A stretch of DNA of 64,000 nt from assembly GCA_002709385.1 (NCBI GenBank), contig PAQS01000021.1, positions 3,387 to 67,386 on the forward strand, given 5' to 3'. Made by a program: the position numbers and the translations under genes. The notes beneath the pieces are model-generated. The model was not told the origin of the DNA. It did not search any database and saw only the letters and a program-made list of their open reading frames with translations. Source of the DNA: Waddliaceae bacterium. GTDB taxonomy: Bacteria; Chlamydiota; Chlamydiia; Chlamydiales; GCA-2709385. Of the stretch, positions 20,399 to 34,544 are shown piece by piece (positions within the stretch are counted from its first letter, which is position 1; each line of letters opens with the position of its first letter).

Positions 20399-20789
20399 AT
20401 GACGTTGTTTCTACCTCTGGAACATTTTCGCGTTCTTCTCTTTCTTCTCGAACTTTTTGTACTAATTCCTCGATACGCAACTGTTGGTCCAGTGAACGAT
20501 CGATTCTAAAAGTAAGTTCAGGAAAATAGCGCATGACGACTTTCTTGGAAGCATGAACGGCAATAAAGCCAGCTGCCGATTGGCAGGCAGCTAATACAGA
20601 TTGCTTAACCTCATCATCACCACCAACTACTGTAATGTATACTTTCGCATAGTGGAGATCGTTTGTGATTTCCACGCGAGTGACTGTGACGAATTCTGAC
20701 ATCATAGGGTTCTTCACATCCTTGTGAAGAACCTCAGAGATGACCTCTTTTAACAAAGAATTCAGTCTTGCAGTTCTGCGATTTTCCAT
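20352..20789 (-). CDS. rbfA: Ribosome-binding factor A
   Basis: RTARLNSLLKEVIS, DLHYAKVY, MRYFPELTF; follows infB. Confidence 0.95.
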   Translation of the reverse strand: MENRRTARLNSLLKEVISEVLHKDVKNPMMSEFVTVTRVEITNDLHYAKVYITVVGGDDEVKQSVLAACQSAAGFIAVHASKKVVMRYFPELTFRIDRSLDQQLRIEELVQKVREEREERENVPEVETTSYDTDSRADTNNDEQD

Positions 20790-30130: not shown

Positions 30131-32158
30131 ATGCTGGATAAAGATGGAATTCCCCGTCTCCGTATGGTTTTTGAAAAAGATGAAACTCATCCTAGTAGTA
30201 TTCACTACGAAGAAATTATCCATGGGAGTTTGAAGCGAGTTTATCCTCATGGTCTTTTTGGTGAAGCTGCCCCGGCAGATGGTGCGGACCCTGAAGAGTT
30301 GTTTGAGTATTATCAGCAGTACTTAGAGACTTTGCCTTATTTTTGTCGTTGTTTTTCTGAAAGAGATGAGTTTGAGCAATCGTTTTATTTAGTCTCTCCT
30401 TTGCGTTCTAATGCGTTTAAGTTTTTTTATGAAATGCTAAGTCGCTGGTTGGTTCCAGGAAAGCTTTTGGAAGTTGTTCTTCTTTATGCAGTTGATTTTC
30501 AAATGCCTGACTTTAGCGAGCAAATTTTCACGATGTGTGAGCTTGTTATTAGAGTTCAAGACCCGCAGGAAAAAGCTATTTTAGAGGGAAATCTTCCTTC
30601 TATTGGAACAGAGATTTGTTTGGGGGTAAGTTCAGCTTTTCACGCACAGCGTATTCTTGAGATTAAGGGCTTATCTTCAGATGAAAAGACGGCGATGATT
30701 CAAGAGCATGCTGCTTATGTTTTAAGAAGACGTCCAAAAGAATTTGGTTATGATCTTTTTACTGAAATGCAGCACGTTTTGGTGATGTGTCGTGATGAAT
30801 TTAAGGTGGCTCGTGAATCCCAGCATATCAGCCGTGTCATTTGCACAATGTACCTCTTCCGAAAATCTCTTAGAAAGTTAATCAGAAAACATCCAGATAA
30901 GCGCCATCTTACTTTGAAGATTCATAGAGCTCGTTGTATGGATCAAGATGGTGAGAGAAGTGTATTAGGTTTAACGGTAGGGGTGAATTTTTTAAGAGAA
31001 AATGAGCTGCTTCAAGAGCGTCATTTGATGAAGGCTATTCAAAACTATGTTCCTGGTGTGAGATCTGTAGATGGTTCATTTTTTGAAAATGGTGGGCGAG
31101 GAGAAAAGATCAGTACTCTGTATGTGGAGATTGAAAAAATCGATGGCGCAGAGTTTACTCAGGCTGAGTTAAGAAGGCTTCAGGGGCAGCTTCCGAGTGA
31201 TTTGAAAGATCGTATTGAGCACTTGATGCACCCTGTATTTATGCCAAGAAATGAAGAAGAAATTTTAAGAAATATTCTTACTTTAAGTCAGCAAATCAAA
31301 TATGTTCGTGATATTCCTCAGGTCATTATTACTTTTGATGAACAGACAGATAGTCATTTACAGTTTACGGTTATTTTAGTTCGGGTTCTTCTTCCTGGAG
31401 TACGCTCCATTCGCGAGCTATTTTTGCAGTCTAGCTCATCTCTTCAATATGTTCATGATCAGTGCAAAAGAGTAGGAATGACTCGTCGCAAGTATTTTAA
31501 AGAAGCTACGGTCTTTCGTGTGCGTTTAGCTAAGCCGCAGTTTCTTCGTCGTGATCATTCTGTTGATTTGACTAAAGCACGACAGTTTGTGTGTTCTGAG
31601 TTATCGGAGGTTGTGGGAGAGTTTAGGGATTACAATGGAGGAATGATTTCTAAGCAAAATGAATTGCTTTGTTCACTTCGAGATAGTTTGGGAGAGGTGG
31701 GGAAAAATAATGAGTTCTTGCTGGAAAACTTTTTTTACTCTTTGCAGCCGGTGGTTATGAGGACGGTGTTAGAACCTGTGCCTCTCCGTACTTTGTTTAT
31801 GATGCTGGTTGATATTCTGGAAGAGCGCTTTTTTAGGTCGGATGCTCTCACTTATAAGGTGAAGGAAGAGCCTAATTACCTATTTATTATGCTTGCTAGT
31901 GAAGATGGGGGAATACGGGATTCTTTGCAAAAAGCGATTGCTCCGATGAATATTCCCAGTCTAGAGTTAGCGTCTATCTCGGTAAATGTTTCGGAAACTC
32001 CGTTTGTGGGATATTTGTATCGTTCGGAAGATCAGGAGCAGAAATTACGTTTTAGAAAAGCCATTGAGCGTGTTTTATTTCCTTCGTCTGAGAAAAGCAG
32101 CCCCCAAAAGGAGGCTGCAGATCTTTCTAAATTACTGAGTAGTAGTTTAGTAAGCTGA
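30131..32158 (+). CDS. Hypothetical protein (675 aa)
   Basis: Long ORF with a complex sequence (FMPRNEEEILRNI, GEFRDYNGG); function not recognised. Confidence 0.8.
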   Translation: MLDKDGIPRLRMVFEKDETHPSSIHYEEIIHGSLKRVYPHGLFGEAAPADGADPEELFEYYQQYLETLPYFCRCFSERDEFEQSFYLVSPLRSNAFKFFYEMLSRWLVPGKLLEVVLLYAVDFQMPDFSEQIFTMCELVIRVQDPQEKAILEGNLPSIGTEICLGVSSAFHAQRILEIKGLSSDEKTAMIQEHAAYVLRRRPKEFGYDLFTEMQHVLVMCRDEFKVARESQHISRVICTMYLFRKSLRKLIRKHPDKRHLTLKIHRARCMDQDGERSVLGLTVGVNFLRENELLQERHLMKAIQNYVPGVRSVDGSFFENGGRGEKISTLYVEIEKIDGAEFTQAELRRLQGQLPSDLKDRIEHLMHPVFMPRNEEEILRNILTLSQQIKYVRDIPQVIITFDEQTDSHLQFTVILVRVLLPGVRSIRELFLQSSSSLQYVHDQCKRVGMTRRKYFKEATVFRVRLAKPQFLRRDHSVDLTKARQFVCSELSEVVGEFRDYNGGMISKQNELLCSLRDSLGEVGKNNEFLLENFFYSLQPVVMRTVLEPVPLRTLFMMLVDILEERFFRSDALTYKVKEEPNYLFIMLASEDGGIRDSLQKAIAPMNIPSLELASISVNVSETPFVGYLYRSEDQEQKLRFRKAIERVLFPSSEKSSPQKEAADLSKLLSSSLVS

Positions 32159-33302: not shown

Positions 33303-33364
33303 GCTACTTCTCTCGTTTTGTTGGTAATTTTAAGTAAAATGTAAAATAAAAATGTAGTAATTAA

Positions 33365-33472
33365 TTACAGGCTGACGACTTGAATGACGACGCTGCTAAT
33401 CACTGCGAGAATGAAAGGTATGAAAAGAATAGGTAGTGCTGAGCTTCTTAAAAAATCAGTATCTTTACACAT
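33365..33472 (-). CDS. Putative brnQ leader peptide (35 aa, Ile/Leu/Val-rich)
   Basis: ATG at 33472 preceded by AAGGAGG; MCKDTDFLRSSALPILFIPFILAVISSVVIQVVSL*; 15 of 35 codons are I/L/V. Not in the ORF track. Confidence 0.75.
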   Translation of the reverse strand: MCKDTDFLRSSALPILFIPFILAVISSVVIQVVSL

Positions 33473-33538
33473 AAAATTCCTCCTTGCTTAAAAGCAAGGC
33501 GCAAGCGTAAAACTTGCTGGTTTGGACAATTCATGGGG

Positions 33539-33567
33539 ATTATAACAGCTCTTCATCTCTCCGTAAA
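33539..33567 (-). promoter_or_regulatory. Promoter for the leader peptide-brnQ transcript
   Basis: TTTACG (33567-33562)-N17-TATAAT (33544-33539) with a TG extension. Confidence 0.7.
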
Positions 33568-33701
33568 GCCTTTCTTTGTGCTTTTTATGTTTTAAAAGGT
33601 ACAAAGTGTAAAAATAAATTCAAAAAGACAAGTAAAAGATTGTAATAATTTGTTTTTTTTGTTTATTATATTTGTTTGAATTAAAACAAAAGAGATTAAT
33701 T

Positions 33702-34544
33702 ATGGCTTTGGATTTAAGTGTTAGTAATAAATCAGATCATGTTTCTTTAGATAAGCCAGTAGAGGGTGGTTCTTCTTGGGCAAGATGGGTCAGTCGTTCT
33801 GGAGCTTCTATGGGGATGGGGGCTGTTTTAAGTCGTTATGCACCTGGAAGATTAATAGAAGATCTTGTAAACGGTTACGAGTTAAGTAAGCCTTATCTTT
33901 CATATTTAGCTGATTATTTGCCGAGTGCTCCGCAGCTAGTTATTGGATCTTTATCTGGAATCACGGCGTTTGATGGATCTCGTCGCATATTACGTGCATA
34001 TTCATCATTTCGCCCTAAAGATGTAGAAGAGCGCACGAATGCTGAGATGATTTCCATCATCATGAGTGATGATAAAAGCAATAATCGTCCTTTGAAGATT
34101 TTTTTAACTCCGGATTGGGCCATTGATTTAGGAGAGCCTGACTTTAAGCGAGCTTCTAAGGATCTTCTTATTGGTTCAGTAGAGTTTGCTTTAGGAACAG
34201 CTGTTATGTACGAAGAGATTAACGCAACAGCTCGTGATGGTGGGGTTGCTTTAATTGATCAGTTAAATAATGGTCTTACCGATCTTGGTGGCTATGTGTT
34301 GAATCATTTGAATGAACCATTGATTTGTGGTGCTGGTGTTACTTTGGGAACTGTACTGGTTCTAGGTGGAGCTAAACATTTTTATGATCAATTTATGTCA
34401 GATCATCCTGTGTGGGTGAACCGAAATGGTCAAAATGAAATTCATGCTTATCAGTATACGGCGAAACTTCGAGATTTGCTAATTAGTAGTGCGTCTATTG
34501 GTACAGGTCTTGTTTTAGGAGCATGGTCTTTAGGTTATTTATAG
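33702..34544 (+). CDS. Hypothetical membrane protein, Inc-like candidate with an internal duplication
   Basis: Several Gly/Ala-rich hydrophobic segments; KDLLIGSVEFALG vs RDLLISSASIGTG. Confidence 0.7.
   Translation: MALDLSVSNKSDHVSLDKPVEGGSSWARWVSRSGASMGMGAVLSRYAPGRLIEDLVNGYELSKPYLSYLADYLPSAPQLVIGSLSGITAFDGSRRILRAYSSFRPKDVEERTNAEMISIIMSDDKSNNRPLKIFLTPDWAIDLGEPDFKRASKDLLIGSVEFALGTAVMYEEINATARDGGVALIDQLNNGLTDLGGYVLNHLNEPLICGAGVTLGTVLVLGGAKHFYDQFMSDHPVWVNRNGQNEIHAYQYTAKLRDLLISSASIGTGLVLGAWSLGYL

Follow-up and report, generated by a model that had tools for sequence, protein, structure and literature searches.

A candidate Ile/Val-sensing leader ORF upstream of brnQ, a gene for a branched-chain amino acid importer, in environmental chlamydiae

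As far as the available portions of the sources cited here go, attenuation by branched-chain amino acids is described for biosynthetic operons (PMC6123439). In the enterobacterial ilvGMEDA/ilvBN and the actinobacterial ilvB leaders a short uORF with clustered branched-chain codons serves as a gauge of charged tRNA (PMC6123439, PMC10272879, PMC13236596), and the synonymous choice of control codons matters (PMC1183508). A short ORF with such a cluster, 35 amino acids long against 32 for the E. coli ilv leader, precedes brnQ in the 64,000-nucleotide stretch of a Waddliaceae contig analyzed here (the window). It differs from the ilv attenuators by its target, which is an importer, by the lack of an Rfam match and by a spacer devoid of a terminator/antiterminator pair: the RNA located 3' of a ribosome placed on codons 24–33 is predicted to fold into no stable spacer structure, i.e. 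no antiterminator hairpin.

A second group of described systems is formed by the Rho-gated uORFs tnaC, speFL, cruR, mgtL and corL, in which the uORF has a C>G tract beside it and there is no intrinsic terminator, as in the brnQ leaders taken together (in the window the tract is free of G but modest in C). When the nutrient is short, importers (of Mg or Cu) are turned on by mgtL, corL and cruR (PMC12360218, available portion). Unlike tnaC, speFL and cruR, the brnQ leaders have no conserved arrest peptide and would sense through runs of cognate codons. The words “valine”, “isoleucine” and “branched” do not occur in the main text of that source. The mycobacterial poly-Cys leader ORFs share with the brnQ leaders a cognate run near the stop codon and the lack of a terminator, and are often leaderless (PMC1262725; bioRxiv 10.1101/834739); they were predicted with possible Rho sites (PMC1262725) and are given as translation attenuation in PMC13236596. 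The brnQ leaders concern other amino acids, other phyla and importer targets, and the pairing with the ribosome site is found in a subset of them only and is not significant in the window. Finally, the ilvB-OMG and Leptospira ilvB motifs combine BCAA-rich uORFs of variable length with RNA structure, their function being unconfirmed, and in Leptospira the uORF stops about 70 nt before the gene (PMC10272879, available portion). These motifs precede ilvB and include Thr codons, in contrast to the brnQ leaders, and Rfam gave no real match at the window region or at 20 related brnQ loci, the only matches being chance-level ones to snoRNAs, miRNAs and introns.

In the open-access literature, as far as it was available, neither a brnQ leader peptide nor such leaders in Chlamydiota are described; subscription papers may bear on this novelty. 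The main text of PMC11109978 mentions neither brnQ nor chlamydia, and in the available portion of PMC8632094 the only chlamydial genome is that of C. pecorum. According to the parts available, C. trachomatis is without TrpL-type attenuation and the only leader peptide annotated in it lacks validation (PMC7755916), while competition for BrnQ blocks growth in Chlamydiaceae (PMC11140210).

The features of the window locus are collected in Table 1. The leader ORF holds 15 Ile/Leu/Val codons (5 of each), 14 of them within the final 23 codons. It starts 66 nt after the -10 box and ends 62 nt before brnQ; the first 50 nt of this spacer contain 0 G and 8 C, just 3 of these C falling within the first 30 nt, and the spacer RNA is mostly unpaired in the predicted ensemble. 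These counts agree with a preliminary description of the locus, which had reported a 35-codon ILV-rich ORF with an AAGGAGG site, a UTR of about 60 nt and a spacer free of intrinsic terminator before a gene identified as brnQ: the Pfam match confirms the gene, and no terminator-like site is found in the 62-nt spacer. To that description we add the two hairpins of the 5' UTR, the terminator-like hairpin after brnQ and a hairpin conserved at the end of related leaders (see below).

Table 1. Features of the leader-brnQ locus (window coordinates) and of the related His leaders (own coordinates).
Feature	Position	Strand	Remarks
Sigma-70-type promoter candidate	33539..33567	-	-35 at 33567-33562, 17-nt spacer, extended -10 at 33544-33539
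5' UTR hairpin 1	33501..33517	-	From folding
5' UTR hairpin 2	33482..33499	-	3' arm contains the first four bases of the leader Shine-Dalgarno
Shine-Dalgarno AAGGAGG of the leader ORF	33479..33485	-	
Leader ORF, 35 codons, unannotated	33365..33472	-	
Control-codon cluster, codons 24-33 (5 Val, 2 Ile)	33374..33403	-	4/5 Val are GTC
Spacer devoid of G and rich in A/U (C>G); putative downstream portion of a site for Rho loading	33315..33364	-	
Purine-rich brnQ ribosome site	33307..33314	-	Predicted weak 5-bp pairing with leader codons 21-23
brnQ, branched-chain amino acid transporter, 391 aa	32127..33302	-	PF05525, E 4e-60
Intrinsic terminator-like hairpin and U tail, 3' of brnQ	32093..32118	-	9 pairs, 7 G-C
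His-leader loci	L364-L371, L373, L388; e.g. G116:C1:152296-152368 (the strand given is that of this example)	-	Gene of the Trp/Tyr permease family (PF03222) 56-71 nt downstream

The leader and brnQ look like one unit, since the terminator-like hairpin closes brnQ and the upstream neighbour is divergent. Neither neighbour of brnQ has a Pfam match at E 0.1, be it the convergent gene (30131-32158, + strand, 675 aa) or the divergent one (33672-34544, + strand, 290 aa). The best named relatives of the window BrnQ are titled Parachlamydiaceae, Waddliaceae, Simkaniaceae and Chlamydiales. The source genome (G000) has 3.15 Mb, is 97% complete and stands alone in its family; ilvC and ilvD were not found in it. 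ARAGORN lists both Val tRNAs (GAC, TAC) in this genome and not tRNA-Ile(GAT), which likely lies in an unassembled rRNA spacer. Among the sequencing data, 12 entries contain part of the stretch, one of them being RNA. Over the four of 17 runs that were compared with it, the RNA run gave a single contig of 214 nt, inside brnQ, and no RNA contig covers the leader, a result that carries no weight either way. A contig from another study (X12, depth 2) shows 3 base differences and one gap upstream of the promoter, none being listed in 33417-33605.

To place the leader against chance in its own genome, we called 2259 ORFs of at least 100 codons and scored the 1148 that have at least 120 nt of intergenic room upstream. 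For the number of Ile/Val in the final 14 codons the brnQ leader (7) ranks first of the 1148, 25 of which reach 5, and its Shine-Dalgarno pairing is the second strongest among the 826 intergenic short ORFs of the genome. The GTC codon is used for 4 of its 5 Val against 11.6% genome-wide (P about 8e-4). Other features are less distinctive. The promoter, previously called near-consensus, does match at 10 of 12 positions with an extended -10; taken alone this is not above chance (7 sites found for 8.9 expected). The 50 nt without G, an interval picked post hoc, are matched by 6 of the 1148 genes at the same position, a G-free run of equal length occurs before 62, and the best 78-nt excess of C over G is reached by 307, so that the excess of the window spacer is ordinary.

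As for RNA structure, the two-hairpin 5' UTR folds at -16.9 kcal/mol, a value as low being found in 18 of 500 shuffles, and the predicted cost of opening the leader start region is 12.3 kcal/mol. An irregular stem joining codons 24–26 with bases past the stop codon reaches -10.6 kcal/mol (26 of 500 shuffles as low); the whole leader folds no better than its shuffles (z -0.09). Elsewhere in this genome neither a second copy of the leader ORF nor, by a genome-wide scan, any convincing leader for another single amino acid was found, and no leader of this kind precedes the brnQ paralogue on contig C49 (G000:C49). Among the 826 short ORFs, a hydrophobic intergenic one of 41 codons (G000:C26, before the gene at 20455 on the - strand), probably an unannotated small membrane protein, ranks first for its ribosome site.

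We then examined the recurrence of the leader before brnQ homologues, which were found in 219 of the 300 genomes of the phylum (262 loci); 248 loci were kept, duplicates and loci with less than 250 nt upstream being dropped. A leader was defined as an ATG ORF of 12–60 codons that stops 30–230 nt before brnQ and has at least 5 Ile/Val in its last 14 codons. This rule was fixed after the first 110 loci had been looked at, and the window locus is excluded from the counts. In environmental chlamydiae leaders are present at 39 of 164 loci, against 8 on the reverse strand and a mean of 4.4 (maximum 7) in 15 shuffles; because related genomes are not independent, P values overstate such contrasts and the counts are descriptive. 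About three quarters of the environmental-chlamydial loci fail the rule. The non-chlamydial loci, mostly titled Alphaproteobacteria/Holosporales, give 23 leaders out of 55 (reverse strand 1, shuffles 1.9), and a metagenome set gives 14 out of 52 non-redundant loci (80 fetched) with none on the reverse strand. The leader-positive loci belong to at least 13 anonymous families and are scattered over the BrnQ tree. No leader is found at the 28 loci of one family with genomes of 1.0–1.3 Mb (f35), which is presumably Chlamydiaceae; the leader has apparently been lost there. Thus the element proposed as chlamydial does occur at many environmental-chlamydial loci, but it extends to non-chlamydial ones and is missing (0/28) from the family taken as Chlamydiaceae.

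The enrichment concerns Ile and Val. Leu alone gives 2 of 164 loci, against 3.1 in shuffles, and the six other residue sets assayed (Leu; Phe/Tyr, Lys/Asn, Ser/Thr, Ala/Gly, Asp/Glu) reach at most 7 of 164. The sensing of branched-chain amino acids suggested initially is therefore retained for Ile and Val, which are enriched before brnQ, and not for Leu. In f35 the Lys/Asn set is seen at 4 of 28 loci, against 0.8 in shuffles. The two nearest relatives of the window BrnQ in the tree (L004 and L264, about 51% identity) have no leader; the region upstream of L004 contains a long inverted repeat. At another locus (L003, G036:C11) an intact family leader lies about 375–440 nt before brnQ, and the interval of about 300 nt between them has inverted-repeat-like ends, perhaps those of an inserted element.

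The peptides of the family (12–59 aa) are divergent and cannot be aligned, only the last residues following the hairpin sequence, while the build is kept at the 39 of 164 and 23 of 55 loci; the prediction that the uORF would be conserved as its peptide diverges is thus borne out. A hairpin of -5 kcal/mol or lower is found at the end of 62 of the 77 leaders and of 15 of the 135 control ORFs from the same regions. It is a GC stem of 5–9 bp beginning with the last control codon: Val stands at the hairpin start in 46 of the 62 cases, and the two preceding codons are Ile/Val in 59 and 51. The 30 nt past the leader end contain 2.1 G and 8.0 C, against 4.9 and 5.4 in the controls, so that the G-poor spacer, too, is a family trait as had been anticipated. 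A hairpin together with at most 2 G is seen in 47 of 77 leaders, as opposed to 3 of the 135 controls. Runs of C come after many of the hairpins. A terminator-like site is present in the spacer of 3 leaders out of 77, at the end hairpin, and 74 of 77 have no U-run after the stem. The distance to brnQ is 60–120 nt in many lineages. In the control regions GTC makes up 43% of the Val codons against 21% in the brnQ genes, and ATT 75% of the Ile codons against 53%.

Pairing of the end hairpin is kept across at least 6 different stem sequences. Formal covariation is modest on model-fitted alignments (87.8% and 75.4% paired, 4 both-side changes each), and a slide by 2 pairs nearly as well, the stem being a GC repeat; the list of different stems is therefore better evidence for the hairpin than the covariation. 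Promoter matches of 10 or more lie upstream of 14 of the 77 leaders and of 3 of the 135 control ORFs, and a strong Shine-Dalgarno is present in only 3 of 77. In many relatives a promoter match lies 6–11 nt before the leader start; where it ends 6–9 nt from the ATG, e.g. in L064, L103, L105, L133 and L146, the leaders are probably leaderless mRNAs. In some others (L015, L269, L272, L071 and L295) the ORF ends on its Ile/Val run and any hairpin lies past the stop codon; these may be classical-type or other sub-forms.

A covariance model (R1) was built from 51 relatives and searched against 200 loci. It gave 22 further hits outside the training set, one of which duplicates a training locus. In 21 of them the hit is in leader position and within a short Ile/Val ORF (20 with an ATG start, 1 with GTG); the remaining one is false, inside brnQ. 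Over 140 whole genomes the model gave 18 hits. Of these, 16 precede brnQ; the other two lie in front of a mitochondrial-carrier-family gene and on a His-rich ORF that precedes a PF03222 permease. Leaders with a His run, the same abutting GC hairpin and a G-poor tract precede this permease at 10 of 30 loci, 8 of which are in one genus.

Within this family the window copy is atypical. It has 7 Ile/Val in its last 14 codons, lies 62 nt from brnQ and is followed by a G-poor tract, as the family rule has it. It is nevertheless one of the 15 leaders out of 77 that lack the end hairpin (0 kcal/mol), and the covariance model drops the hairpin on it, scoring 16.6 bits (E 0.63), i.e. rank 2 of 11 in the 64 kb, behind a chance hit; the whole-genome search with the model gave no hit in the source genome. 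Conversely its ribosome site, half hidden in UTR hairpin 2, is stronger than that of any other family leader, and its peptide has the highest hydropathy of the 77 leaders (2.73 for the best 19 residues). We conclude that the window copy works like the family while being atypical; the likeness lies in the build, and common descent is a possibility.

That the ORF is an Ile/Val-sensing cis leader of brnQ, by whatever mechanism, appears highly likely, and the window element is very probably a real and functional leader of this kind on an importer. Whether Rho provides its main output is an evenly balanced question. Comparison of the sequences gives the leader ORF, the Ile/Val cluster with its GTC/ATT bias, the G-poor tract and the lack of a U-run terminator. 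The leader would report the charging of tRNA-Val and tRNA-Ile and control brnQ on the same transcript. When Val and Ile are plentiful, the ribosome would complete the leader and depart. Some 100 nt of C>G RNA with little folding, composed of the 3' half of the leader and the spacer, would then be exposed; Rho would load there and halt transcription at the brnQ start, ahead of ribosome binding to the partly folded start region. When Val and Ile are short, the ribosome would wait on codons 24–33 and cover the coding half of the site, which would leave at most 50 nt free and slightly loosen the brnQ ribosome site, so that brnQ would be made. In most relatives the GC hairpin at the last control codon could act as a pause signal, or as a clamp joining the two halves of the site. 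In the window copy, where this hairpin would have been lost, the irregular stem of codons 24–26 with bases past the stop codon may be used.

This scheme departs on one point from the initial proposal, in which the stalled ribosome masked the 50-nt rut tract. If its footprint is assumed to extend about 13 nt beyond the A site, a ribosome on codons 24–33 reaches little further than the stop codon: the tract stays uncovered, and it is the C-richer coding half of a composite site that is hidden. A Rut site is C>G and has little structure, its optimum being 60–90 nt (PMC12360218, available portion). It is on this footprint estimate and on the size and composition of Rut sites that Rho-dependent attenuation over a composite site is favoured. 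Rho is over the cut-off in this genome and in the 10 leader carriers tested out of 10, which says little since Rho is nearly universal.

The sensing could also be read out at translation initiation, with the leader coding region pairing the brnQ ribosome site, a stalled ribosome freeing it and any Rho effect being a secondary polarity; we regard this as unlikely, though it accounts for part of the data. For 50 environmental-chlamydial leaders the duplexes between leader and cognate start region have a mean of -9.8 kcal/mol against -8.5 for shuffled pairings (z -4.0, 2 of 20000 permutations), but this signal is absent from the 23 non-chlamydial leaders (z +1.4). Both comparisons place 11 of 73 loci in their top tenth, among them L010, L129, L163, L203 and L231. 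The window duplex (-7.6) does not surpass non-cognate pairings (ranks 0.53 and 0.85). Pairing of codons 21–23 with 5 bases ahead of the brnQ start is predicted there at a probability of 0.8–0.9, and a ribosome on codons 18–28 lowers the opening energy from 8.1 to 6.2–6.7 kcal/mol. With the last control codon masked, the start region becomes easier to open by at least 2 kcal/mol in only 13 of 77 leaders, and by 0.1 in the window. Moreover a translational output leaves the G-poor, C-rich tract unexplained. A universal anti-Shine-Dalgarno switch was looked for across the family and not found. Re-initiation by the ribosome was set aside as well, the 62-nt spacer being too long when judged against the short distances given in the available portion of PMC4833913.

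Quite unlikely, in our view, is a sensing leader with yet another output, either mRNA decay or a weak intrinsic terminator assisted by a factor and made of the end stem and an A/U-rich tail. The family hairpin is indeed GC-rich and followed by A/U/C-rich RNA, it passes the terminator rule in 3 of 77 cases, and the irregular stem of the window lies before a U-rich stretch. But the U-run after the stem is missing from the other 74, many hairpins being followed by C runs instead, and a terminator overlapping the stop codon would presumably be blocked by a fast ribosome too.

We consider it improbable that the ORF encodes a single-pass small membrane protein, be it a modulator of BrnQ or a type I toxin-like peptide with a ribosome site hidden by a hairpin. 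This alternative, raised in the preliminary description, fits the window copy somewhat better than the family: the hydropathy of its peptide is enough to span a membrane, and the strongest ribosome site of the family is here partly sequestered by a hairpin. In the family, however, 49 of 77 peptides lack the length or the hydrophobicity that a membrane helix requires, lengths vary from 12 to 59 without alignment, neither Leu nor Phe is enriched, and the His version is polar. The bias among synonymous codons argues for the RNA level, and the leader peptide itself has no Pfam family over the cut-off (best E 0.035) and no usable protein Atlas match. Ile/Val codons before a branched-chain importer and His codons before another permease are predicted by a sensor of tRNA charging and not by a membrane peptide.

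The least probable reading, in which the ORF arose by chance or is what remains of a family leader in decay and has no regulatory role today, would suit the missing hairpin, the marginal model score, the nearest BrnQ relatives without a leader and the 25 of 1148 genes passing the 5-Ile/Val rule, but is opposed by the open frame, by ranks of 1/1148 and 2/826 on two separate features before exactly the matching transporter, by the GTC bias and, weakly, by the lack of listed differences in 33417-33605 of contig X12.

Chlamydiae have few regulators. If the Ile/Val-sensing leader is real, an element of about 250 nt would let environmental chlamydiae match branched-chain uptake directly to host supply, and a case based on uncharged tRNA, for Ile/Val, would join the short list of Rho-gated uORFs. 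Tentatively, and with somewhat less than even confidence, we propose that host-dependent auxotrophs (environmental chlamydiae and Holosporales-like alphaproteobacteria) share a terminator-less chassis made of a codon run, an abutting GC hairpin and a G-poor C/U tract. In this chassis the sensing codons would be interchangeable (Ile/Val for brnQ and a mitochondrial-carrier-family gene, His for a TyrP-family permease), Rho would tune nutrient theft from the host to tRNA charging and the leader would name the substrate of the transporter; the window would represent a hairpin-less form in which run and tract may be enough and leader initiation would be gated by an additional hairpin.

The codons of such leaders would, if this is true, give substrate predictions for orphan transporters. 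The His leaders suggest that the PF03222 permease behind them is a histidine importer. Likewise, an Ile/Val family leader precedes a mitochondrial-carrier-family gene (PF00153) at two loci (L357:1500-2548 and L048:877-1917), which suggests a branched-chain substrate for this carrier; at L048, brnQ lies about 1.1 kb downstream.
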